Positions 5,609-19,671 are shown, counted from the stretch's first letter. The stretch is DNA of 45,133 nt from Phycisphaera mikurensis (GCA_020723465.1 DYIW01000002.1:7048-52180), one strand, 5' to 3'. Numbers and translations are program-made. Notes: generated from the letters alone by a model not told the origin.

Positions 5609-6541
5609 ATGCACGACGCGTCGCATGCCACCAGTTCATCGCCTTCGAGCGCTCGTTTCCGCTGCCTGGGGAGAGCCGCCGCCGGCGTGTCGCGGCTGCC
5701 GGCGGCCTTGCTGCTGGCCGTGGGCCTTCTGGCCGCGGCGGCGGCGCCGCTCTTCGCCGCCAACCCGGAGCGTCTGTCCGCAAAGGACCTGGTCCAGCAG
5801 GCGGACCTCATCATCGAAGGGGTCGTCACCGACGTCGCCTACCGCAACTCGGACGTGGCGGGACCGGACGACGTCAGCCTGCCGCACACCTTCGTCACCC
5901 TGGCAATCGAGCACACGTACAAGGGCACCTCGGCCGCCGGCCAGCAGATCACGCTGCGCATGGAAGGCGGGCCGAACGGCGCCGGGCGCGTGCTCGTGGT
6001 CTCGGACGTGCCCCGGTTCCGCGTGGGCGATCGGGACGTCCTCTTCATCCGCGAGAACGGCAGCTCCATCTGCCCGCTGGTGGGCTGGGAGCGGGGCCGC
6101 TTCCGCGTGGTGCGCGGCCAGGTGTACAACGACCTGGGCCAGGAGGTGTGGATCACGCCCGAGGGCGGGTTCGCCTGCGGCGCGCGCCGCATCGATGTGA
6201 GCGCCTTCCCCTATCCCGAGGTTCCCGAGCAGCAGGACGGGGCAGAGCCGGCCGCAGCGCTTGCGCCGCCGCCCGGGTCGGTGCTGCCGGACGCGGCTGG
6301 CCTGGGAGTGGTCATCAACCGGATCGCCCTCGACCTGGCGGCGCGCGGCGAGCTGGCGCAGGCGGCGCCGGTGCCGAGCCTGAGCCCGGCCATGACGTTC
6401 TTCCGCAAGAAGCTCGAGCCCGGTGCGCCTCCCGCGGATCTCGCGGCCGGCAAGGCGGCGTTCTTCACGGGCGCGTTCGACCCGCGCGAGGCCGAGCTGA
6501 TCCAGAGAGAGCGGACCGAGCACGAGGCAGCAGGGAAGTGA
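5609..6541 (+). CDS. Secreted hypothetical protein, probably accessory to the downstream metallopeptidase
   Basis: AAGGAG RBS before ATG 5609, signal-like hydrophobic stretch, then ADLIIEGVVTDV...KG...ITLRMEGG...P.FRVGDRDVLF. Only 26 nt separate it from the next gene. Confidence 0.7.
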   Translation: MHDASHATSSSPSSARFRCLGRAAAGVSRLPAALLLAVGLLAAAAAPLFAANPERLSAKDLVQQADLIIEGVVTDVAYRNSDVAGPDDVSLPHTFVTLAIEHTYKGTSAAGQQITLRMEGGPNGAGRVLVVSDVPRFRVGDRDVLFIRENGSSICPLVGWERGRFRVVRGQVYNDLGQEVWITPEGGFACGARRIDVSAFPYPEVPEQQDGAEPAAALAPPPGSVLPDAAGLGVVINRIALDLAARGELAQAAPVPSLSPAMTFFRKKLEPGAPPADLAAGKAAFFTGAFDPREAELIQRERTEHEAAGK

Positions 6542-6567
6542 GCAGGAAAGAACAAGGAGAGACAACC

Positions 6568-8322
6568 ATGAAAGCGCATATGACAGCCAGCATTCTCAGC
6601 GTCTTGTTCGCCGGCGCGCTCGCTCACGAGGCGACCGCCTGGACGTGGCTGACCTGCACCGGCGGCGAGAAGGGCCACTGGGACTCGCACAATGTGCCCT
6701 TCCGCGCCTCGCAGATCGGCTTTCCCGAAGGATCAGCGTGGAGGACCGCGCTGCAGTCGGTCGTCCACGCCTGGAACAACACACCCGCCGGCGTGTCCTA
6801 CTCGATGAGCTGGAACGAGCCGGGTATCGGCGAGGACAACGGCGAGAGCGAGGTGTGGTGGAGCGGCGCCATCAGTCCTCCGGCGGTCACCTACACCTGG
6901 TACTACGATTCGTCCTGCGAGATCGTCGAGACCGACGTGGTCTTCAAGAACACGGTCAGCTACACGACCTCTACGGACAAGGCCGACTTGACGCCGTACG
7001 GCGGCGCGTATCGTCCGTTCCGCACCACGGCCATCCACGAGTTCGGCCATGCCCAGGGACTCGGACACACGACGGATACGTACAGCGTCATGGGACAGGA
7101 CTGGGACCACGTCCACGCCAATGGGTCGTCGGCCAGCGCGTATCCGGGCGAGGACGCCTTCGCCGGTTCCGTCGACGTGTACGGCTTCAAGGCGGGCGTG
7201 CACGAGGACCTGGCCGTGGCGCATTGGCGCCACACGGGCGCGAGCGGCGGGTACAGCACGCACGACCGCACCCGCGTCCTGGACTCAGGCGGCGGGCTGC
7301 TCTCGGACGTTGGCGGCGATGAGCCGGTCTACCTGGTGAAGAAGGGACAGCAGGTCAAGCTGCAGATGTCCTACGAGAACATGGGCAAGTCGATCCATGA
7401 CGCCAAGGTCGGCTTCTACCTGTCCGAGAACGACTACATCTCGGGGCTCGACACGTTCCTCGGCTGGATGCAGGTCAACGACCTGGGTCTGAATACGGTC
7501 TACACGCACGACGGCTCGCTCATCACCATTCCGGAGTCGGTGGCCGAGGAAACGATCTACTGGCTGGGCGCCATCATCGACTACGACGGCACCGTGGCCG
7601 AGGTGGACGAGCAGAACAACGCGACCTACACGGCCATCAAGATCGAGAGGTTCCCCGACCTGGAGGCGGCGGCGATCAGCGGGCCCGGCGCGCCGGGAGG
7701 CTCGCTGCCCGGCGAGGTCGTGGCGGTATCGCGCAACGTCCAATCCGTGGGCGGGCCCTTCTCCGGGTCGTTCAGCTACGAGGTGCGTCTCAGCCTGAAC
7801 ACCATGATCACGACCTTCGATCCGCTCGTAGCCAGCTTGTCGTCGAGCACGCTGGGAGCAGTCGGCCTTTCCCTGACGCTCCCGTCCGATCTGGCGCCGG
7901 GCACCTACCACTGGGGCCTGATGGTGGACGCGGTCGCGGGCGAGACGGCGACCGGCAACAACACGGTTGCGGGCGGCACCATCGTGGTGAAGGACAAGCC
8001 CGACGTGGAAGTGGTCTCCGTCAAGGGGCCGAAGAAGGCGCTGGCGGGCAAGAAGGCCAAGGTCATCTTCAACGTGCTCTCGAGCCACTACAGCGGCGCG
8101 TTCACGTACGAGATCCGCCTGAGCGAGAATGCGGTCATCTCCTCGTTCGACACGCTCGTGGACAGCGGCACGGCGTCGGGTTCGGGCAAGCACAAGGCCA
8201 AGTTCACCATGCCCTCGCTGCCGCACGGCAAGTACTACTGGGGCGTGATCATCCAGCCGGTTCCCTATGAAACGGAGACCGGCAACAACTCCCTGGCGGG
8301 CAACCGCGCCAAGGTGAAGTGA
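6568..8322 (+). CDS. Secreted metzincin (matrixin/M10-like) metallopeptidase with C-terminal CARDB-like domains
   Basis: Signal peptide, HEFGHAQGLGH zinc motif, SVM Met-turn, and three repeats ending E-xxx-xNN (EVDEQNN, ETATGNN, ETETGNN). AAGGAG RBS. Confidence 0.85.
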   Translation: MKAHMTASILSVLFAGALAHEATAWTWLTCTGGEKGHWDSHNVPFRASQIGFPEGSAWRTALQSVVHAWNNTPAGVSYSMSWNEPGIGEDNGESEVWWSGAISPPAVTYTWYYDSSCEIVETDVVFKNTVSYTTSTDKADLTPYGGAYRPFRTTAIHEFGHAQGLGHTTDTYSVMGQDWDHVHANGSSASAYPGEDAFAGSVDVYGFKAGVHEDLAVAHWRHTGASGGYSTHDRTRVLDSGGGLLSDVGGDEPVYLVKKGQQVKLQMSYENMGKSIHDAKVGFYLSENDYISGLDTFLGWMQVNDLGLNTVYTHDGSLITIPESVAEETIYWLGAIIDYDGTVAEVDEQNNATYTAIKIERFPDLEAAAISGPGAPGGSLPGEVVAVSRNVQSVGGPFSGSFSYEVRLSLNTMITTFDPLVASLSSSTLGAVGLSLTLPSDLAPGTYHWGLMVDAVAGETATGNNTVAGGTIVVKDKPDVEVVSVKGPKKALAGKKAKVIFNVLSSHYSGAFTYEIRLSENAVISSFDTLVDSGTASGSGKHKAKFTMPSLPHGKYYWGVIIQPVPYETETGNNSLAGNRAKVK

Positions 8323-8353
8323 CTCCCCGCGGCGGACGCCCCGGCCGCGAACA

Positions 8354-8400
8354 GACCACGGGCTCCTCCGGGACTCGATCCCGGGGGAGCCCGGTCTTTC
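8354..8400. terminator. Hairpin between convergent genes, probable bidirectional terminator
   Basis: CGGGCTCCTCCGGGA-ctcga-TCCCGGGGGAGCCCG, a 15-bp stem with one G-U pair, followed by gtctttc. It lies just past the read-through stop at 8410, not next to the UGA at 8530. Confidence 0.6.
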
Positions 8401-8409
8401 TGACGTGCG

Positions 8410-9858
8410 TCAGTAGCGGAAGGTGCGCTTCTCGATCTTCGTCTCGAACGGTCCCACCTGGTACTGGCACGCGATGACGTACTCGACGCCCTTCTTGGGG
8501 CCGCTCCATGCGGCCGAGCAGCTAAAGCCTCACCCGTACTTGAAGGTGCCCTGGGCGACATTCTCACCCGCGGCCGTGACGATGGTGTAGCTCGGTTCCG
8601 CCGGGCGGGCCCTGCTGCTCTGCGAGAGGACGACCGAGCTCTTCTTGCCCGAGACGAGCTGGAGGTCGGTCAGGAGCTCCTGAGCCCGTCCCTGGACGTT
8701 GAACCCGAGGTCGGCCTCAGTCGCGCCGGTCTCCTGCATGTTGCGCAGGGACCATTCAGACACCTGCGCCACGGGCAGGTAGGGCTCGCCGAACTCGAGC
8801 AGGGCCTCGGCGCCGGGCGCGACGCTCAGGAAGGGCGTGGCGCCGCTGCCTGCGGCCTCGAGCCGCCAGAGGTCGCCCTCCTTGCCGCTCTGCAGCAGCG
8901 CGTAGCGGAGCAGCCGCCAGTCGCCGGCCGGGATCCTGGGATTGACCGGCCGGTGCATCATGACGCAATGCGCGAAGTTCCGCTCGAGCAGGGTCAGGCG
9001 CTCCGGCGCCTGGGAGAGCTTGAGCGGCACGATCTCGTCCTCTACCGGCGCGAGCGCCAGCTTCCTGGCGGCCGTGTCGACCTTCACCGTGAACGCCTTC
9101 TCGCCGAGGATCAGGAGATCGCCCAGCAGAAACTCGTCCGCTCGCGACATCTTCTGCTCGGCCGTGAGGTACAGGCTGTCCCCCTGCGCGTAGATCGGCT
9201 GATCCGCGGACACGTACAAGTTCTCGGGGATGCGCGCCGTGTCGGAGAAGACTCCGTTGCAGTCGCCGTCCCCGAGCATGACCTGGTAGGTGGCGCCGTC
9301 CAGCGTGAACGAGCCGGCGTAGTGGCAGGCGGTGTCGACGCCGAAGTAGATGAAGCGCGCGGCGTCGCCGCCGTCCTCCTGGTTCTGCCCCTGCAGGCGG
9401 AAGCCCAGCCGGTAGGGCAGGACTGCGCCGCCGAGGCGGTATTCGACCGAGACCTCGTCGTCGAAGGAGACGTAGTACTGCTCGATGTCGCCGAAGCGGG
9501 CCAGATCTCCCACGAGGACCGGGTCGTCCGTGAGGTCGCCGTTGTCGTTCCGGTCGAAGCGGATGCGGTTGTAGAAGCCGTCGTCCGCCGCGACGCGATC
9601 AAGCACGGCCAGGAAGTCGGTCTCGCCGAGGGTCACGGTTGCGAAGAGCGGCCGCGCGCCGGTCAAGTCCGGCAGGTTCCAGTCGCCGCCGGGACAGTCG
9701 GGTGAAGGCTGCGCGTGGGCGCTCCCCCAGGGATGGACAGCGTCCTTGTCGTCGAGGTTCTGCCGGTACTCGAGCGCCACCTCCAGCGTCTGCGCGGGCG
9801 CGAGGCCGCACAGCAGCAAAAGCAGCGCGAGGGACCGGACCGGGAATCCACAGATCAT
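8410..9858 (-). CDS. Exported putative selenoprotein, YG-U-GFxC family paralog 1 (482 aa, Sec codon at 8530-8532)
   Basis: Signal peptide and DxNxNGDLTDD motif. The frame continues past TGA: ...GTFKYG-U-GFSCSAAWSGPKKGVEYVIACQYQVGPFETKIEKRTFRY*. This extension matches the post-UGA extension of 15729..17198, and a SECIS-like hairpin follows. Confidence 0.85.
8490..8532 (-). promoter_or_regulatory. Candidate bacterial SECIS element
   Basis: UGA-14 nt-GGCCGC[AUGGA]GCGGCC; the loop starts 20 nt after the UGA. Confidence 0.7.
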
Positions 9859-10026
9859 CTTCCAGCCTCCTTTCTGGGTGAACGATCCAGCATATCAGGT
9901 TGTGCACGGGCTGCCAGCCGCCAGGGGGCGGGCGGCGCGTCCCCTGGCCCGGTGGTCGCTACCCGGCGAGGCTCTCGACGCCTACGATCGACGGGGCAGC
10001 GTGGCCGTGTACGGAGGGTGGCAAGC

Positions 10027-10719
10027 ATGGACCGAATCGCCGTGACCGTTGCCGCTGGCGTCGTGTTGCTGTTCGTGACCGGAGGCTGCGCGCGGAAGGA
10101 AGAACGTCCACCGGCCGCCGAGGGAACCTTCGCGATTTCCGGCTTGCCGGCCGAGATGACGGTGACGCAGCGATCCACGACGGCGGTCCCGGGATCGGAC
10201 GGGCGCGTGCGCGTGACCGTCGATGACGTCACGCGCGGCCAGGTGACGGTCACGGTGCTCGCCGAGGATGGGAGCGCGCTTGCCGGTCCGACGTCTCTTT
10301 GCCCGGCAGACCGCGTGCGATTCGCGGCGGGCGGGGGCGCCTACGTGCTGCAGCTCGAGGCGCTGGACAACGCGCTGGTGGGCGAGGACCACGCCACCCT
10401 TGTGATCGCCGCCGCGGAGGCCGGCCCGCCGGAGCGCGAGAAGATCGAGCGGCTGCTCGCGTTCGTGGCGTCGATGCAGGACGCGGTCTTCATCCGCAAC
10501 GGCGCCGAGTATCCGGCCGCGGAGGCCGCCGACCATCTGCGCTGGAAATGGGAGGCGGCCGGCGCCCGCATCCGCACGGCCGAGCAGTTTATCGAGGAGA
10601 TCGCGACGCGGTCCTCGGCCAGCGGAGAGGCCTACCAGATCCGGCTCAAGGACGGCGTGCTCGTGCCCGCGGGCGAGTACCTGAAAGAGCGGCTGGCCGA
10701 GATCAATGAGAACGGCTAG
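10027..10719 (+). CDS. Lipoprotein with C-terminal DUF5329 (YfeK-like) domain
   Basis: Lipobox-like VTGGC. C-terminal EREKIERLL...FIRNGAEYPAAEAADHLRWK...TAEQFIEEIATRSSASGEAYQI is recognisable as DUF5329. Confidence 0.75.
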   Translation: MDRIAVTVAAGVVLLFVTGGCARKEERPPAAEGTFAISGLPAEMTVTQRSTTAVPGSDGRVRVTVDDVTRGQVTVTVLAEDGSALAGPTSLCPADRVRFAAGGGAYVLQLEALDNALVGEDHATLVIAAAEAGPPEREKIERLLAFVASMQDAVFIRNGAEYPAAEAADHLRWKWEAAGARIRTAEQFIEEIATRSSASGEAYQIRLKDGVLVPAGEYLKERLAEINENG

Positions 10720-11536
10720 CGGGCGGCGCCTGCGGCCGCGAGCGCGGCGTGCGCGGCTTGGGCCCGCGCTGCACGCACACGGTCTGGCACTCGTGGCAGA
10801 CCACGCAGTCGAGGGCGCGGCTGGCGGGAACGCCCGCGCGGAAGCGCTCGGAGGGCTTGCCTTCCATGGGACAGACCTTGTTGCACTTCTCGCACTTGAG
10901 GCATTCGAACTTGGCCGGGCTGACGCTCCACAGGCTGACGTGATTGAAGGGCGCGAGCATGGCGCCGAGCGGGCACAGGACGCGGCAGAAGCCGCGCTCG
11001 AAGAAGAGCACGAGCAGCAGCACGAGGACGAGCACGCCTAGCTTGATCGCCGTGGCCAGGCTGATCGCGGCGCCGCCGATCAGGTTGGGGATCGTGACCT
11101 GGAGCGCGGAGGCGGGGCAGACGCGGCAGAAGGACCAGAGGGTCTCGGCGCCGAAGAACCAGGGCAGAGTGAAGATGGTGAGCAGGAGCACCAGGTACTT
11201 GATGTACGTGGTCCAGGCCGGCAAGGAGAGCTTGGGCGTGGGGATCTTGTGCAGCAGGTCCTGCAGGAAGCCGAAGGGGCACACCCAGCCGCACAGCAGG
11301 CGGCCGAGCAGCGCGGCCAGCAGCAGGAAGAGGCCGAGCGTCAGATAGGGGAGGACGTGCCAGCCCGAGTAATGCACGAAGATGCCCATCGGGCAGGCGA
11401 ACCAGGCGAGCGCGCATGAGTGACAGCTCAATACCGGCGCGCAGAACCACTTGAGCTGGAGGGCGGGGCTCCAGGAGCTATGCAGCAGCAGGAGGGAGAA
11501 GGTCTGCACCCACCTCCTGGTCTTCTGGATCATCAT
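10703..11536 (-). CDS. Membrane 4Fe-4S binding protein (NapH/MauN-like)
   Basis: CHSC-x6-CP, CGWVCPFG, CRVCP and FCRVLCPLG motifs, several TM segments, and two ferredoxin motifs (CLKCEKCNKVCP, CVVCHECQTVC). Lies directly downstream of selB. Confidence 0.85.
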   Translation of the reverse strand: MMIQKTRRWVQTFSLLLLHSSWSPALQLKWFCAPVLSCHSCALAWFACPMGIFVHYSGWHVLPYLTLGLFLLLAALLGRLLCGWVCPFGFLQDLLHKIPTPKLSLPAWTTYIKYLVLLLTIFTLPWFFGAETLWSFCRVCPASALQVTIPNLIGGAAISLATAIKLGVLVLVLLLVLFFERGFCRVLCPLGAMLAPFNHVSLWSVSPAKFECLKCEKCNKVCPMEGKPSERFRAGVPASRALDCVVCHECQTVCVQRGPKPRTPRSRPQAPPASRSH

Positions 11537-11579
11537 GGGAATGGAGTCGTGACAGCGGCGGCCGGGTTGTGAGCTGGTC

Positions 11580-13571
<1,992 letters not shown>

Positions 13572-13613
13572 GCGCTGTCCCTCATCGCCGCCGGAGCTGC
13601 GCTAGCTCCTGCC

Positions 13614-15029
13614 TCATGCGTCTGCGCGCGCCGCGCGCCGCAGGGCTGCATGCACCAGCGCGTCCTCGCCGGCGAGGAGCGTGCGCATGTCGAGGATCAC
13701 CTCCTCCTCGCTGATGCGCGCGATGACGGGCGGCTCGTTCTGGCGCAGGAGCTGGCTCAGCCGGTCGGGGGAATGCCGCGCGCTCCGCACGGCCAGCACG
13801 TAGGTCTTGAGCGGCGTCGCCGGCATGGAGCCGCCGCCCGCGGCGCTCTCGTCCTCCTTGACGCGCGCCTCCAGGGGCAGGCGGTCGGCGTCGATGCGCT
13901 TCTTCAGGCGCTGCGCCCTCCGGCGCAAGTCGGCCGGGTCGGCCGCCAGCATGCGCAGGGTCGGGTGGTTCTCCAGCAGCGTCTCCTCGTCCAGGAACAG
14001 GCGCAGCGTCTGCTCGAGGGCGAGGTCGGTGAGCTTGCACACGCGCATCATGCGGGCGAAGGGGTGCTTCTTGATGCGCGCGACCAGCTCGGCGCGGCCG
14101 ACCACGATGCCGGCCTGCGGCCCGCCGATGAGCTTGTCGCCGCTGAAGCAGACGACGTCCGCGCCGGCGGCGATGCTCTCCTGCACGGTCAGCTCTTTCG
14201 GCAGGCCGAAGCGCGTGGTGTCCACCAGGGCGCCGCAGCCGACGTCGTCGATGACGATCACCGGCCGCTTCTGCTTCAGCGCGACCAGCTCGGCGATGGA
14301 CACTTCCTTGGCGAAGCCGACCACGCGGTAGTTGCTCGGGTTGGCGCGCAGGATGGCGCCGGTGCGCTCGTTGAGCGCCTCCTCGTAGTCGCGCAGGTGC
14401 GTGCGGTTGGTGGTGCCGACCGGCACGGCGATGGCGCCGCTCTGGCGGATGCAGTCCGGCAGGCGGAAGGAGCCGCCGATCTCGATGAGCTGGCCGTGCG
14501 AGACGATGACTTCCTTGCCGGCGCAGAGGGCGGAGAGGATGAGCAGCGTGGCGGCGGCGTTGTTGTTGGTGATCATCGCCGCCTCGGCGCCGGTCAGGCG
14601 CGTGAGCAGGCGCTCGCTCATGTAGCAGCGCTTGCCGCGCTTCCCGGTGTCGAGGTCGATTTGCATGCTGCAGCAACGGTCGAGCGAGGCGAGCGCGGCA
14701 GCGGCGCGCGGCGGCAGCACGGCGCGGCCGAGGCCGGTGTGCAGGATCACGCCCGTGGCGTTCACCACCGGCCGCAGGCGGTCCTTCTCCTCCTCGAGGA
14801 CGATGTGGCGCACGCGCTCCACGACCTCGCCCATGGCCGGCAGCTCATCCCCGGGGCGGAAGGCGCGGCGGAACTCGCCGAGCGCGGCCTTGATGGCGTC
14901 CAGGACCAGGGGGCGCGAGAACTCGGCGATCAGCTCGTGGATGCGCGGTTCCTCGAGCACGGCGTAGACCGGGATGAGCCCGCGTCGCGTGTCGTCGCCG
15001 CCGTCTGGGGGGGAGGAGTCTCGTGTCAT
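13614..15029 (-). CDS. selA: L-seryl-tRNA(Sec) selenium transferase
   Basis: VVNATGVILHTGLGRA, NNNAAA, EIGGSFRLPD, VGTTNRTH and the PLP motif FSGDKLIGGPQAG. Confidence 0.97.
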   Translation of the reverse strand: MTRDSSPPDGGDDTRRGLIPVYAVLEEPRIHELIAEFSRPLVLDAIKAALGEFRRAFRPGDELPAMGEVVERVRHIVLEEEKDRLRPVVNATGVILHTGLGRAVLPPRAAAALASLDRCCSMQIDLDTGKRGKRCYMSERLLTRLTGAEAAMITNNNAAATLLILSALCAGKEVIVSHGQLIEIGGSFRLPDCIRQSGAIAVPVGTTNRTHLRDYEEALNERTGAILRANPSNYRVVGFAKEVSIAELVALKQKRPVIVIDDVGCGALVDTTRFGLPKELTVQESIAAGADVVCFSGDKLIGGPQAGIVVGRAELVARIKKHPFARMMRVCKLTDLALEQTLRLFLDEETLLENHPTLRMLAADPADLRRRAQRLKKRIDADRLPLEARVKEDESAAGGGSMPATPLKTYVLAVRSARHSPDRLSQLLRQNEPPVIARISEEEVILDMRTLLAGEDALVHAALRRAARADA

Positions 15030-15044
15030 GGGCCTATGCAAAAG

Positions 15045-15139
15045 TGGCGGAGGTGAATGGGAGTCGAACCCACCTAGCGTCTAAGCGACGATACGACGGC
15101 TTTGAAGGCCGCGGGAGCCACCGGGCCCCGCTCACCTCC
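15045..15139 (-). tRNA. selC: tRNA-Sec (anticodon UCA)
   Basis: 95 nt with an 8-bp acceptor stem GGAGGUGA/UCACCUCC, anticodon arm GCGGC-CUUCAAA-GCCGU, long variable arm, T arm GUGGG-UUCGACU-CCCAU and encoded GCCA end. Directly upstream of selA. Confidence 0.97.
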
Positions 15140-15169
15140 GCATGTTGTCTGCGCGGCGGCCGCCGATCC

Positions 15170-15198
15170 CTTCTACTTGCGCCCGCTCCTGCCGTCAA
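15170..15198 (-). promoter_or_regulatory. Putative sigma70 promoter of selC-selA-selB
   Basis: TTGACG-N17-TAGAAG, about 30 nt upstream of tRNA-Sec. Confidence 0.55.
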
Positions 15199-15229
15199 GG
15201 CAGCCCGGCCGCCCGGCCGGAGCGGGAGG

Positions 15230-15258
15230 TTGCCGCGTCGTCGCTCGTGCGGTAGCAT
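15230..15258 (+). promoter_or_regulatory. Putative divergent sigma70 promoter for the two selenoprotein genes
   Basis: TTGCCG-N17-TAGCAT, back-to-back with the selC promoter. Confidence 0.5.
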
Positions 15259-15349
15259 CCTGGACGCAGGCAGCCGCCGTTCCGGCCGCGCGGGTCGTTC
15301 CTCCGCGCCGGGGGGCGCTTGCCAGGACCGTCCGGAGGTGCGGCGTTTC

Positions 15350-15631
15350 ATGGCGGCAGGACCCTGGGTCAGGAAGTCGGCGGCTGCCGTCATTCTCGCC
15401 GGGAGCGTGGTGCTGATCGCGGCCGCGCGCGAGCGCTCGTACGACGTGCGCGTGCTGGACGCCGACGAGCTGGCCGAGGTGCTGGGCGTCGCGCCCTTCG
15501 ATCAGATCAGCGAGACGCAGCTCGCCATCGACGCCACCTTCACCGGCGTCATCCGCAAGGAGGGTGGGCTCTACTCCACCTACGACCGGTCGCAGCCGCG
15601 CAGCAAGCGAGCCTGCCCGACGTGACAGTAG
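15350..15631 (+). CDS. Small membrane-anchored protein with C-terminal C-P-T-U-Q (putative CxxU selenoprotein, 93 aa)
   Basis: ATG 15350 after GGAGG, N-terminal hydrophobic helix, ends ...KRACPT TGA CAG TAG. SECIS-like hairpin at 15641-15659. Confidence 0.7.
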
Positions 15632-15660
15632 TCCTTCCTTGCCGGTCACGGCGACCGGCT
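15623..15660 (+). promoter_or_regulatory. Candidate SECIS element (mostly in the 3' UTR)
   Basis: UGA-15 nt-GCCGGUC[ACGGC]GACCGGC; the loop starts 22 nt after the UGA. Confidence 0.55.
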
Positions 15661-15728
15661 GACCAACTATTGATGCAGCAGAAGCGGCGCGGAGGCGGTG
15701 CGCTCGCACCCCGCGCCGAGGAGCCGAG

Positions 15729-17198
15729 ATGACAGGAGCGTGGAAACGACTCGCGCGGGCGGGCCTGTTCGCGGGCGCGCTCGCCGCGCCGGCCCTGGCC
15801 GAGGAGGTGGCGCTGGAGTACGTGCGCTACCCGGAAGGCGAGCAGGAGGACGAGGCGTTCCTGCCGCGCTTCACCCGCGCCATCGAGGAGATCGCGACCA
15901 GCGCGCCGCGCGGGGACTTCAAGCTGCCGCCGCTCCAGAGCAAGGAGCCCCTGTTCGCGCTCCTCGAGCTGGGCGGGGAGCCGCGGCTGCTCGTCTTCGA
16001 CCGCGCGGACGCCGGCGATCCTTTCTTCAACGTCCTTTACTGCGACGCCGATGGGGACGGCGACCTGACGAACGACCCGGCCCTGAAGAGCGTCGATGCC
16101 GAGGCCTTGCCGGGCTACCTCGAGCTGCCGCCGCTCGATCTGAAGGTGCGCGCGGGCTCCGGCCGCGCGGACTACAGCCTGCGCGTCACACTCACCTCGA
16201 GCGCGCTGCTCGAGGGCGGGGAGCTGAGCGACCCGCTCGACCTCGAGGACCTTTCCCTGCAGATCACCCCCAACTGCTGCTACGCGGGCGAAGCGGCCTG
16301 CGCCGGCGGCGCCTGCCGCCTGCTGCTCGCCGACGCGAACGTCAACGGGCGCTTCGACGACGTGGTTCGGCTCGACTCTGACGGCTACGAACCGTTCCAG
16401 GCCATCGAGCCCGCGGGCGACCTGCTCTACCTGACCACCGCGGGCACAGTCGAGGCAAGCGACTTCTGCGCGCTCGGGAACGTGCTCGCGCTCGGCCAAG
16501 ACGTGTTCCAGGTGAAGGTCGACGCGGCCGCGCGGAAGCTCGTGCTCGAGCTTTGCGCCGACGCCAGCGCGACCCTCGACCTGCCGCAGGACTGCGAGCG
16601 CCTCTGCCTCGCCTCCGAGGACGGCGGAACGTACGTGGTTCTGTTCCAGCCGGGCCGGAGCGCCTCCGTCCCTGCCGGGAAGTACCGGGTCGCCGCCTAC
16701 CGGCTGCGGCGCGCCGACGCCGAGGGCGACGTGAGGAGCCTGGCCGCGGCCGCCACGCCGCGCACGCCTTTCTTCATGGCGGCAGCGGGCGCGTCCACGG
16801 CCGTGGCCTTCGGCGAGCCCTTCGCGCCGGCGGCGCGCGTGCCGCCGAGCGCCTACGAGGAGGCCGCGGGCGCGACACCGGAATCCGTGCCGGTCGAGTT
16901 CCGCATCGACGGCAGCGCCCAGGAGGTCGTCACCGACCTCAGGCGCGTCTCGGGCAGCGCGACCAAGATCGAGATGGACGGGGTGAAGACGCACCTGCCG
17001 AAGGCGCCGGCCTACGTGATCCTGTCCGCGGCCGGGAAGATCGCTGCGCGCGGCGCCTTCGAGTATGGCTGAGGCTTCACCTGCTCGGCCACATGGGCTG
17101 GCCCAGAAGCGCAGACCAAGTACGTCGTCGTGTGCACCTACCAGGTGGGGCCCTTCGCCAGCGCGAAGGTGAAGGAGGAGATCGCGCCCTTCCCGTAG
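15729..17198 (+). CDS. Exported putative selenoprotein, YG-U-GFxC family paralog 2 (489 aa, Sec codon at 17070-17072)
   Basis: Signal peptide ending ALA-EE and DADGDGDLTND motif. Reads ...GAFEYG-U-GFTCSATWAGPEAQTKYVVVCTYQVGPFASAKVKEEIAPFP*. Collinear with 8410..9858 on both sides of the UGA. Confidence 0.85.
17070..17110 (+). promoter_or_regulatory. Candidate bacterial SECIS element
   Basis: Lower stem GCUUC/GAAGC and upper stem GGCCA[CAUGGGC]UGGCC; AUGG starts 20 nt after the UGA. Confidence 0.65.
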
Positions 17199-17268
17199 TC
17201 CTGCAGGCGCGTCCGAGCGCAACCTGATCGACGGGGTGTGCTCCTAACATTGAGCGGCTACCGGGGTC

Positions 17269-17340
17269 TCGTGCCCGTGCCCGTGCCCGACGGTAGCGAA
17301 CGCCATGACCCGCTTCGATCGGGCACGGGCACGGGCACGA
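17269..17340. repeat. Perfect 22-bp inverted repeat built from (GTGCCC)3
   Basis: TCGTGCCCGTGCCCGTGCCCGA (17269-17290) and TCGGGCACGGGCACGGGCACGA (17319-17340), with a 28-nt spacer. Confidence 0.9.
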
Positions 17341-17565
17341 AACAGCCAGCCCGCCTGCTCAGGGTCGCACGCAGACCCGCGCAATCGACTTCCTCTATCA
17401 GCGCGATTCGCCGTTTCTCTTTCGCGGCGCCGAGATGGGGGAGGCGGTGCCGCCGCGCACCGGGAACGGCCCGAAAGCGGCGCTCGGCCCGCAAATTGCA
17501 TATGGGTTTTGGAGTCGGTACGCTCGCTCGTTCGCTTCCGGCGCCAGCCAGGTGGAGTTGGACCA

Positions 17566-19671
17566 ATGACCAGGAACCTGTACGTCACGATCAACGAGAC
17601 CCGCAGCGGCAAGAGCGCCATCTCCCTGGGGCTGATGGAGTTCATGGAAGGGACGATCCAGCGCGTCGGCTTCTTCCGGCCGATCGCGCGCATGCATGAG
17701 CGCGGCGCGGCCCTCGACGCGAACATCGACCTGATCCGCAGCCACTTCCGGCTCGAGGATCCGCCCGAGCTGATGTACGGCGTGTCGGCCAAGACCGCCG
17801 AGGAGATGGTCGCGCGCGGCCGCTTCGACGACCTGATCGAGACGATCATCGAGCGCTACAAGGCGTACGAGGAGCAGTGCGACTTCGTCCTCATCGAGGG
17901 CACGAACTACGAGGGCGTGACCTCGTGGTTCGAGTTCGACACCAATGCCATCATCGCCCGCAACCTGGGTGCGCCGGTGCTGATGATCTTCAAGGCCAAG
18001 GATCGCACGATCGACGAGATCGTCTCGTCGGCGGTCATGAGCAAGGAGCAGTTCGAACTGCGCGGCTGCGAGCTGAAGGCGGCCATGGTCAACATGGTCG
18101 ATCCCGACCGCCTGCGCGAGATCCGCACCACCCTGCAGGAGCGCATGTCCCGCGAGGGAATCGACCTCGTGGGCGTCTTCCCCGAGGAGAAGCTGCTCGC
18201 CTGCCCCACGGCCGCCGAGGTCATCACCGAACTCGGCGGCACGGTCGTCTACGGCGAGAAGTACCTGGACAACCTGGCCTCGGGCTTCGTCGTGGCGGCG
18301 ATGAAGCTGGACAACTGCCTGGAGCGCATCCCCGCGGGAGCGCTGGTGATCACACCCGGCGACCGCCAAGACATCATCGCAGGCCTGATGGCGGCGCAGA
18401 TCTCGACCACCATGCCGAACATCGCCGGCATCGTGCTCACCGGCGGCTTCCTGCCCACGCCGCCCATCGACCGGCTCATCAAGGGGCTGCGGTCGGTGCG
18501 CGTGCCCATCATCTCGGTGCAGGAGAACACCTTCGAGACGGCGATGGCTCTGAACCAGATCAACGCGGTGATCCGGCCGGCGAACCACCGCAAGATCGAC
18601 ACCGCACTGTCGCTGTTCGCGGCCAACGTCGACGCCGCGCGTTTGACGGCGGTGCTTGCGGTCGAGGCGCCGCAGGTGCTCACGCCCAAGCTCTTCCTGC
18701 ACAAGGTGGTGCACATGGCCGCCGCGAACAAGAAGCGCATCGTCCTGCCCGAGGCGCTGGAGGAGCGCATCCTGCGCGCCGTGGAGGTCCTGGAGCGCCG
18801 CGACGTGGTGGACGTGATCCTCCTGGGCGAGGAGGAGAAGATCCGCGCGCGCGCCGACGAGCTCAAGCTGCAGCTCGGCGACGCGCGCATCGTCAACCCG
18901 GCGGAGCAGCCGGACTTCGAGGACTACGTCGAGACCTACTTCGAGCTGCGCAAGCACAAGCAGATCACCAGGGACATCGCGCGCGACACCATGGTCGATC
19001 CGGTCTTCTACGGCACGATGATGGTCTACAAGGGCCACGCCGACGGCATGGTCTCCGGGTCGATCACGACCACGCGCGAGACGCTCCGGCCGGCCTTCGA
19101 GTTCATCAAGACCCGGCCGGGTATCTCGCTGGTCTCGAGCGTCTTCTTCATGTGCCTGGATGACCGTGTGCTCGTCTACGGCGACTGCGCGGTGAACCCC
19201 AATCCCACGGCCCAGGAGCTGGCCGAGATCGCCGTGTCCTCGGCCGACACCGCGCGCGCCTTCGGCATCGAGCCGGCGGTGGCCATGCTCTCCTATTCCA
19301 CCGGCAAGTCGGGCACGGGCAGCGACGTGGAGAAGGTGGCCGAGGCCACGCGCCTGGCGCAGAAGCTGCGCCCCGACCTGGCCATCGAGGGGCCGCTGCA
19401 GTACGACGCCGCCATCGACGCCGGCGTGGCCAAGACCAAGCTGCCGGGCAGCAAGGTGGCGGGCCACGCCACCGTGTTCATCTTCCCCGACCTCAACACC
19501 GGCAACAACACCTACAAGGCGGTGCAGCGCTCGGCGCACGCCATCGCCGTGGGGCCGGTGCTGCAGGGCCTGAAGAAGCCGGTGAACGACCTGAGCCGCG
19601 GCTGCACCGTGCCGGACATCGTCAACACGGTCGCGATCACCGCCATCCAGGCGCAGAGCGTCGGCGACTGA
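17566..19671 (+). CDS. pta: Phosphate acetyltransferase (long form with AAA_26/DRTGG N-terminus)
   Basis: SGKSAISLGLM, TPGDR, YGDCAVNP, GPLQYDAA, FIFPDLNTGNNTYKAVQR and PVNDLSRG motifs. Confidence 0.95.
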   Translation: MTRNLYVTINETRSGKSAISLGLMEFMEGTIQRVGFFRPIARMHERGAALDANIDLIRSHFRLEDPPELMYGVSAKTAEEMVARGRFDDLIETIIERYKAYEEQCDFVLIEGTNYEGVTSWFEFDTNAIIARNLGAPVLMIFKAKDRTIDEIVSSAVMSKEQFELRGCELKAAMVNMVDPDRLREIRTTLQERMSREGIDLVGVFPEEKLLACPTAAEVITELGGTVVYGEKYLDNLASGFVVAAMKLDNCLERIPAGALVITPGDRQDIIAGLMAAQISTTMPNIAGIVLTGGFLPTPPIDRLIKGLRSVRVPIISVQENTFETAMALNQINAVIRPANHRKIDTALSLFAANVDAARLTAVLAVEAPQVLTPKLFLHKVVHMAAANKKRIVLPEALEERILRAVEVLERRDVVDVILLGEEEKIRARADELKLQLGDARIVNPAEQPDFEDYVETYFELRKHKQITRDIARDTMVDPVFYGTMMVYKGHADGMVSGSITTTRETLRPAFEFIKTRPGISLVSSVFFMCLDDRVLVYGDCAVNPNPTAQELAEIAVSSADTARAFGIEPAVAMLSYSTGKSGTGSDVEKVAEATRLAQKLRPDLAIEGPLQYDAAIDAGVAKTKLPGSKVAGHATVFIFPDLNTGNNTYKAVQRSAHAIAVGPVLQGLKKPVNDLSRGCTVPDIVNTVAITAIQAQSVGD

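Follow-up and report, generated by a model that had tools for sequence, protein, structure and literature searches.

Does the codon TGA close two genes that flank the selenocysteine (Sec) machinery of Phycisphaera mikurensis, or does it stand for a Sec residue inside them? The question arises from a stretch of 45,133 nucleotides (nt) with a GC content of 70.3% (GCA_020723465.1, DYIW01000002.1:7048-52180), called the window below, in which two paralogous genes, here named A and B, both appear to end in G-x-F-x-Y-G-TGA. Judging from comparison with their relatives, the in-frame TGA of both genes is almost certainly decoded as Sec, because the UGA and its flanks are conserved, a covarying hairpin is limited to the UGA forms, some homologues carry an aligned Cys, and the family co-occurs with the Sec machinery. 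A and B are also very probably members of a large exported selenoprotein family, one that was not found in the curated catalogues searched. Read through the TGA, the two genes extend as follows.

8413..9858, minus strand: predicted selenoprotein gene A, 482 codons, with Sec443 at TGA 8530..8532 and the terminator TGA at 8410..8412
15729..17195, plus strand: predicted selenoprotein gene B, 489 codons, with Sec448 at TGA 17070..17072 and the terminator TAG at 17196..17198

The in-frame TGA and the sequence beyond it

Calls made with the standard code are shorter, giving gene A 442 codons (8530..9858) and gene B 447 (15729..17072). At the site, gene A reads ...GTFKYG-TGA-GFSCSAAW... and stays open for 39 codons more; gene B reads ...GAFEYG-TGA-GFTCSATW..., followed by 41 open codons. 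The read-through products share 161 of 460 aligned residues (35%, BLASTP E 5e-74), and their alignment crosses the TGA to continue as far as ...QVGPF. The first-pass annotation had described two exported-type proteins with this ending, frames open for a further 39 and 41 codons, a gapless alignment of the extensions with 17 of 28 residues identical, and a position of the two genes on either side of selB-selA-selC. The coordinates, the read-through translations and a hand count of the 28 residues bear all of this out, and the three sel genes were each identified between A and B. The same annotation had named YVVVCTYQVGPFASAK, a peptide spanning or following the UGA, and had pointed to two Cys residues in the extension: both are present in A and in B, but the second (VVVCTY) is not a family-wide feature. 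Signal-like hydrophobic N-terminal segments are seen in both proteins, as are two loops each of the form D-x-[DN]-x-[DN]-G-x-[LF]-x-[DN].

The TGA is retained far beyond the window. Within the genome that holds it (G000; 5.84 Mb in 456 contigs, 92% complete), a third member on contig C437 has one in-frame TGA (...FECG-U-GFTCSYSW...GPF) and a fourth, divergent member (C218:12186-12641; L044 6097..6942, minus strand) reads ...FENT-U-GALSKTW...GPF. Among the 29 matches listed for 61 related genomes, each of the 17 that extend at least to query residue 477 contains a single TGA, and the 12 shorter ones, which cover N-terminal or middle parts only, have none. With a profile search of a 301-genome sample of the phylum, we obtained matches in 72 genomes at E <= 1e-8; by hand count, 51 of the 56 site-spanning matches (those reaching profile position 457 or beyond) have one TGA and five lack it. 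A sample of 151 genomes from a second phylum, that of a Lentisphaerae metagenome-assembled genome (MAG), gave six spanning matches, five of them with TGA. Taking both phylum samples together, the TGA is kept in 56 of 62 site-spanning relatives, and none of the spanning matches in these searches ends in UAA or UAG at the site.

Conservation at the protein level follows the same line. An alignment of 14 full-length read-through genes from eight genomes (alignment A1) has 19 invariant columns, seven of which lie at or after the Sec. Between G442 and F476 there are nine (G442, G447, U448, C452, W456, P459, G474, P475 and F476), and the family motif can be written G-x-F-x-Y-G-U-G-[FG]-x-C-x-x-x-W-x-x-P ... 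G-P-F. The stretch at and past the TGA is the best-conserved part of the protein.

The six spanning matches without TGA are equally instructive, being divided between three Cys forms and three paralogues that have lost the site. The Cys forms place a Cys exactly at the Sec position and keep the spacing C-x-x-x-C. Two of them are uninterrupted genes reading ...FEYS-C-GGVC... (L042 and L043, in G111 and G256), and the third, from the Lentisphaerae MAG, reads ...FEFG-C-GGSC... (L023); a database protein, P0107, is a further Cys form with altered spacing. Site loss concerns tandem paralogues on one G225 contig and one paralogue in G102 (L046, L045). For the Sec machinery itself, a threshold of E <= 1e-30 gave selA in 221 genomes of the 301-genome sample and in 28 of the 29 that hold TGA forms, the lone miss being G102 (90% complete, 410 contigs); no p-value is attached to this co-occurrence because related genomes are not independent. 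No selA match was obtained in the three genomes where the spanning matches are Cys forms only (G111, G256 and G327), among them the Lentisphaerae MAG, whose completeness is not stated.

A SECIS-type hairpin, by analogy with the Sec insertion sequence (SECIS) of bacteria, was found downstream of the TGA in both genes.

8499..8515, minus strand: hairpin of gene A, GGCCGC-AUGGA-GCGGCC, starting 14 nt past the UGA, 6 of 6 pairs
17087..17103, plus strand: hairpin of gene B, GGCCA(C)-AUGGG-(C)UGGCC, 5 of 6 pairs

The signal emerged only once homologues were aligned. In a gapless alignment of the 60 bases that start at each of the 14 TGAs (alignment A2), columns 18-23 pair with columns 29-34, forming a stem of 6 base pairs (bp) with a 5-nt apical loop that begins 14 nt after the UGA. 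Pairing occupies 91.7% of cells, against 64.2% in shuffles, and falls to 33-58% when the 3' arm is slid by one to three columns. Double-sided changes (GC/UA, CG/AU and AU/UA/GC) occur in four of the six pairs, for a total of 23 cells. All 29 TGA forms hold five or six of the six pairs, 21 of them the full set; the three Cys forms hold just two or three.

A 2026 review gives a bacterial SECIS model with a loop of 3-9 nt, a stem of 4-16 bp, a distance of 16-37 nt from the UGA, a G in the first two loop positions and a minimum free energy of -7.5 kcal/mol or lower (PMC13188914). Set against the model as given there, the spacing (20 nt), loop (5) and stem (6) agree in 29 of 29 forms. As read from the aligned sequences, the hairpin is real but matches the consensus only in part, which makes it a family-specific variant of the bacterial SECIS. 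No Rfam model covers it, tRNA-Sec being the only real Rfam match in 8000..17600.

The apical loop, mostly (A/G)UGGN, contains the codon of the near-invariant Trp that lies four residues after the conserved Cys (Cys+4, four residues past the Sec). This Trp is replaced by Gly in both f63 Cys forms (L042, L043), and the lone TGA form with Val in its place (L041) retains the stem with a different loop. Since the UGG of the loop is the Trp codon and the Trp is lost in the f63 Cys forms, part of what looks like protein conservation is probably a constraint on the RNA.

The TGA could also be a real stop, with proteins ending in ...Y-G and the downstream conservation owed to something else, for instance a separate small open reading frame (ORF) or an RNA element. 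In all public records examined the gene is given this end, and open frames past stops are common in this GC-rich window: of its 107 open frames of at least 200 codons, 62 have at least 39 open codons past the stop, so that openness past the TGA is in itself no evidence. The hairpin evidence also has its limits. Folding of single sequences over the 63 nt after each UGA gives no signal above that of shuffles (z -0.03 and +0.72). The rule of a G in the first two loop positions is obeyed by 12 of the 29 forms, the others having AUGGN or UUGGA, and the energy rule by 24 of 29 in a 30-nt sub-window, both rules being those of PMC13188914. The covariation score is reached by none of 500 shuffles, but as its 14 sequences are related this control overstates the significance; the slid-register control is unaffected. 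Against the stop stand the in-frame conservation of amino acids across phyla, accompanied by synonymous and compensatory nucleotide changes, the Cys codons that take the place of TGA in uninterrupted ORFs of genomes without a selA match, and the absence of the hairpin from the Cys forms. A confident AlphaFold2 model moreover uses the residues past the TGA as the last strands of a beta-sandwich. A stop at this position is accordingly highly improbable, and the part of the signal that is not due to chance is the conservation across genomes together with the covarying hairpin.

Extent of the family and its domain architecture

The Sec-bearing family to which A and B are assigned is large, and most of its members come from uncultured bacteria. 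A profile search of 1.84 billion cluster representatives returned 4,810 proteins at E <= 1e-3, 2,481 at 1e-10 and 1,022 at 1e-30, the last figure counting clusters at 50% identity; the weaker matches will include non-Sec proteins that share just the N-terminal modules. Among the best 150 representatives, which include the two of the window, 142 end in the strict pattern G-x-[FL]-x-[YCW]-G and six more in a version of it that differs at the first residue, so that 148 stop exactly at the TGA. The two exceptions are P0107, of the Cys type, and P0092, with an unrelated C-terminus. Gene A is represented by a 442-residue protein ending in ...FKYG (P0007) and gene B by one of 447 residues (P0003). 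Where the sources give a name it is 'hypothetical protein'; among these sources are MAGs at NCBI that bear the label Planctomycetes or Planctomycetota, as well as one labelled Candidatus Aminicenantaceae. The counts of Cys and TGA forms rest on the exhaustive profile search and the genome searches; a word-indexed protein search, which found four whole-protein relatives and six with the C-terminal domain, is too insensitive for counting Cys forms.

None of the 14 aligned members matches a model of NCBIfam 20.0, except for one chance-level match (E 0.041), and none has a Pfam-A match above cut-off. Below threshold, Pfam gives MG2 in three of the 14 (best E 0.0017) and single weak matches to MelC1, EF-hand_5 and a phage-baseplate family. 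A sequence search of the PDB returned no match. The first-pass annotation fares well here: the three tests that it named all favour its selenoprotein reading, through the retention of the UGA, the conservation of the tail and the co-occurrence of selA, its guess that the proteins would be annotated as truncated hypotheticals was right for 148 of the best 150 records, and the NCBIfam and Pfam scans agree with its view that no named selenoprotein family fits.

The 2026 review tabulates 119 prokaryotic selenoprotein families or subfamilies; in a text search of its accessible part the motifs 'UxxxC' and 'YGU' were absent, 'Uxxx' occurred once, in the UxxxxU of TsoB, and 'GUG' once, in the SGUG of selenobacteriocin (PMC13188914). 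The motif that comes nearest is the GUxG of 'Hypothetical protein DG' (NF049953), whose model gave no match. BSepDB holds 111 families, all of them previously reported ones (PMC13326102). The literature searched yielded no exported immunoglobulin (Ig)-like selenoprotein in Planctomycetota, some recent candidate lists and supplementary tables lying beyond its scope. We consider it likely that the family is uncatalogued.

As far as their accessible texts allow a judgement, the two catalogues, of 111 and 119 families, appear to miss a large family, having been built largely from Sec/Cys pairs and known families. As this family is almost entirely of the Sec type, searches based on Cys homologues have few starting points and would miss it. 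Many public records consequently lack the part that bears the most conserved site of the protein, 148 of the best 150 being cut at the UGA. A profile combined with the SECIS variant would allow annotation pipelines to repair such genes.

The Sec site lies in a C-terminal domain, which takes the following positions in the two genes.

8413..8781, minus strand: C-terminal Sec-bearing beta-sandwich domain of gene A, a profile match included in alignment A3
16821..17195, plus strand: C-terminal Sec-bearing Ig/macroglobulin-like domain of gene B, domain model with a mean predicted local distance difference test score (pLDDT) of 90.2

Modelled with AlphaFold2 on the 14-row alignment, the whole of gene B is all-beta besides its N-terminal signal helix (pLDDT 87, predicted template modelling score 0.84), and Foldseek matches this 489-residue model only to strings of Ig/FN3-type domains (TM 0.1-0.15). 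The C-terminal domain, modelled alone from 32 aligned sequences, is a seven-strand sandwich whose last strands are formed by the residues past the TGA. The Sec falls in an interstrand loop, within the least confident block of ten residues (mean pLDDT 78), and Cys452 (Cys+4) opens the strand that follows. The best structural matches of this domain are macroglobulin and bacterial Ig-like domains, generic beta-sandwiches that do not point to a function. A thioredoxin fold, the fold of most known selenoproteins, does not agree with the all-beta models; the motif is U-x-x-x-C, not C/U-x-x-C/U.

The rest of the protein is more variable. Hydrophobic N-termini were recognised by eye at 13 of the 14 chosen starts. 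The N-terminal half holds two conserved D-x-[DN]-x-[DN]-G loops, in which D106, D202, N206 and G207 are invariant or nearly so. Short members are reduced to the final domain or the final two (open frames of 150 to 260 codons), and long ones, of about 600 residues, have an additional N-terminal domain. In a variant that appears membrane-anchored (L036 17219..18283, minus strand), the Sec domain is followed by about 250 residues with many hydrophobic helices. There are also non-Sec paralogues of about 430 residues that join the N-terminal module to a Thioredoxin_7 domain without CxxC (L004 1231..2520, plus strand, on G000:C284; also L012, L014 and L018); in the three scanned (L004, L012, L018), Thioredoxin_7 scores 27.9 to 37.3 bits against a cut-off of 27.

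The sel island and its counterparts in other genomes

Between A and B the window contains the following genes.

15045..15139, minus strand: tRNA-Sec (selC), anticodon TCA (ARAGORN; Rfam RF01852, 73.1 bits)
13614..15041, minus strand: selA (TIGR00474, 511.7 bits against a cut-off of 268, E 1.8e-153)
11580..13571, minus strand: selB, Sec-specific elongation factor (TIGR00475, 292.5 bits against a cut-off of 242)
10703..11536, minus strand: membrane 4Fe-4S protein with Fer4_5 domain, NapH-like (Pfam PF12801, E 3.9e-15)
9715..10719, plus strand: putative exported protein or lipoprotein with C-terminal DUF5329 (Pfam PF17263, E 1.8e-25), start uncertain

The Fer4_5 gene follows selB directly on the same strand, and the DUF5329 gene sits between it and gene A. 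The selB gene itself terminates in TGA, and read through its frame extends by only about 34 codons. A genome-wide reassignment of TGA was rejected since selB, gene A and eight of the 14 aligned members terminate in this codon. Elsewhere in G000, selD has one in-frame TGA (C171:2054-2980, L047), by which SelD is itself a predicted selenoprotein. Eight molybdopterin-domain matches in this genome all lack TGA, and no Sec-type formate dehydrogenase is evident there.

The genes flanking the pair have no apparent link to selenoproteins. At 6148..8322 (plus strand) lies an exported protein of 724 residues that combines a CARDB domain with a zinc-protease motif of the matrixin type, and at 17305..19671 (plus strand) a phosphate acetyltransferase (pta), the next translation resembling an acetate kinase. 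A long hairpin-forming stretch just past the stop of gene B (17251..17363) gives sub-threshold microRNA-precursor matches on both strands (best RF00678, 35.9 bits, E 2.4e-5) and is probably a terminator or a palindromic repeat.

The arrangement recurs in other genomes. At least 11 genomes, spanning at least seven of the taxonomic families sampled, have a member no more than about 3 kb from selA: G000, G001, G015, G047, G086, G144, G225, G238, G240, G253 and G283. In G015 the order is selA, selD-CMD, selB, an oppositely oriented ORF of 157 codons, a Fer4_5 Fe-S protein and a member; this Fe-S protein, of 760 residues, fuses Fer4_5 to 2Fe-2S, dicluster and FlpD domains, and its gene abuts that of the member. 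The G253 island comprises selB, selA, two members, an outer-membrane channel-like gene, an ABC transporter (domains NMT1_2, BPD_transp_1 and ABC_tran), selD, Fer4_5 and two more members. Outside the window, Fer4_5 genes are thereby found in the sel islands of two lineages (L024 9607..11886, minus strand; L036 15122..16042, plus strand). The Fer4_5 protein could be part of selenium metabolism, or the electron donor of the selenoprotein. Genes of the URO-D family (MtaA/Mlp-like) adjoin selD and members in G047, G225 and G086.

L031 5942..8079: URO-D-family gene
L035 8064..9095: URO-D-family gene
L037 3946..5016: URO-D-family gene

A preprint connects genes of this type with the use of methyl-selenides as a source of selenium (PMC10418091). 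Other members of the selenoprotein family lie far from any sel gene and have sulfatase and glycosidase genes as neighbours (L026, L028).

Two genomes of one genus, G238 and G283, have only a minimal open frame beside selA and divergent from it (L039 7181..7498 and L040 6192..6611, both minus strand). Both the hairpin and ...MEYG-U-GGTCRYSW...GPF are kept in these frames; ahead of the motif the two show no conservation, and no signal peptide was seen. They may be remnants, small selenoproteins or Sec-dependent leaders. Both stand upstream of an operon with methyltransferase and 2-hydroxyacyl-CoA-dehydratase-like genes, for which they may act as selenium-sensing leaders.

Candidate functions and comparison with known systems

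How the family might work can be outlined from its sequence and predicted structure. SelB with Sec-tRNA(Sec) would bind the hairpin and insert Sec at the UGA, and the last 39 to 47 residues would then complete the C-terminal beta-sandwich. Exported by way of its N-terminal signal peptide, the protein would work outside the cytoplasm. There, the Sec in its glycine-flanked loop and the Cys four residues on would form a selenol/thiol to selenenylsulfide couple, and an Ig/macroglobulin-like scaffold would thus bear a site that is redox-active or reacts covalently. Positioning or selecting the substrate would fall to the N-terminal beta-sandwich domains, which are variable and have Ca-type D-x-D-x-D-G loops, and the NapH-like Fer4_5 membrane protein of the islands would be a candidate electron donor. 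An exported, Gly-flanked Sec with Cys+4, almost never replaced by Cys, suggests a chemistry that needs the selenol, and we tentatively favour a selenenylsulfide redox site or covalent-carrier site outside the cytoplasm. The family may be what keeps the Sec trait in these lineages.

Certain observations temper this proposal. The best structural match of the Sec domain, MG1 of Escherichia coli alpha-2-macroglobulin (4zjh_A; root-mean-square deviation 2.4 Å over 78 residues), has a Z of 7.5, within the range common for unrelated beta-sandwiches, and the fold carries no catalytic signature. Cys+4 is not universal, since some paralogues have U-x4-C or U-x5-C, L044 has Ser at that position and L046 lacks both Sec and Cys+4. 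The Fer4_5 neighbour is seen in three lineages only. Selenoprotein genes of other families also adjoin sel genes, so synteny need not mean a functional tie.

A related idea is that the Sec/Cys loop captures extracytoplasmic selenium or sulfur species and, as a covalent chalcogen carrier, hands them to uptake and SelD, which would give the protein a share in acquiring selenium and make it more than a client of the Sec machinery. It draws on the presence of members inside selenium-utilisation islands, such as that of G253 with its ABC transporter, channel-like gene and selD, and on the URO-D-family genes beside selD and members in three genomes. SoxY (2oxh) is among the weak Foldseek matches (E 0.027, TM 0.41-0.45), and the G-U-G-G motif resembles the glycine-flanked carrier Cys of SoxY. 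However, this match is one among many generic beta-sandwich matches, and the Sec stands in an internal loop, not on a C-terminal arm. Three to five paralogues per genome, with varied N-terminal architectures, would be unusual for a single trafficking step, and many members lie far from sel genes, near sulfatases and glycosidases (L026, L028). Such a carrier seems unlikely to us. Still more doubtful is its extension into a full extracytoplasmic arm of selenium acquisition, with a Sec carrier that binds selenium species in the periplasm or on the cell surface, is reduced by Fer4_5 and feeds uptake and SelD, which would explain the adjacency to selA, selB and selD in at least seven Planctomycetota families together with the Mlp-like genes and the ABC transporter.

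A site for soft metals or metalloids (Cu(I), Hg, Cd or As), in a periplasmic chaperone or detoxifier, is also improbable. Several bacterial selenoprotein families listed in the review do bind metal, among them MerT-like, CopZ-like, MbdU, YHS and SO_0444 proteins (PMC13188914), and CopC (5icu; E 0.018, TMt 0.48) and CrdA (9ll2; Z 6.1) appear as weak structural matches. These matches are nonetheless at the level of the generic Ig fold; no metal-resistance gene stands beside any of about 20 annotated loci, and no His or Met ligand is conserved near the Sec.

Whatever its chemistry, a secreted selenoprotein built on an Ig/macroglobulin-like scaffold, and not on a thioredoxin fold, is biologically unusual. 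It may explain the maintenance of the Sec trait in Planctomycetota lineages, where selA is found in 221 of 301 sampled genomes, and it provides a tangible starting point for work on the role of selenium beyond the cytoplasm.

In its decoding, the family resembles E. coli FdhF, which has a SECIS within its reading frame: both have an in-frame UGA, a small hairpin within 16-37 nt and a G in the apical loop, and decoding would depend on selA, selB and selC, as for selenoproteins of the FdhF type. Its genes adjoin sel genes, as fdhA does in Proteobacteria according to PMC4807772. Unlike FdhF, a molybdopterin enzyme, the proteins have an Ig/MG-like beta-sandwich, are predicted to be exported via a signal peptide and place the Sec 40 to 47 residues from the C-terminus; their Cys forms are rare, with three aligned among the 62 spanning matches and P0107 among the best 150 database proteins.

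Closer in appearance are the small families 'UGSC-containing protein' (NF041046), 'Hypothetical protein DG' (NF049953, GUxG) and 'UGC', in which the Sec is likewise flanked by Gly, a Cys is nearby in some, the function is unassigned and the discovery was computational. They differ in that the present family has the spacing U-x-x-x-C, and none of its 14 members matches their NCBIfam models. According to the deep-Sep paper, all its new selenoproteins, DG included, have a number of Cys homologues, and DG is found in Desulfosediminicola (PMC12013277), whereas the present family is almost all Sec and occurs in Planctomycetota and a second phylum. An identity with 'Hypothetical protein DG' was rejected on the lack of an NCBIfam match and on the differences in organisms and Cys content.

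SoxY is a periplasmic Ig-like beta-sandwich, to which the predicted fold of the family is comparable, with 2oxh as a weak Foldseek match. Like the family, it has a reactive chalcogen residue held between glycines. SoxY, which works with a SoxZ partner, nevertheless bears its Cys on a C-terminal GGCGG arm, whereas here the Sec lies in an internal loop with two more strands after it; there is no sequence similarity, and Pfam scans of the neighbouring ORFs gave no Sox family. The N-terminal domain of DsbD carries a redox-active Cys pair on a periplasmic Ig fold. The likeness is a redox pair on an extracytoplasmic Ig-like scaffold fed by a membrane electron-transfer partner; the Cys spacing differs, the neighbour is a NapH-like Fe-S protein with no DsbD-like membrane domain, and DsbD is absent from the structure-search matches. 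Bacterial alpha-2-macroglobulin joins multiple MG domains to a thioester domain with a CGEQ-type motif; Pfam detected no thioester domain in the 14 members, the CGEQ motif not being searched separately. The likeness to that protein covers one domain only, yet its MG domains provide the best structural match of the Sec domain and the weak MG2 matches in three of the 14 members.

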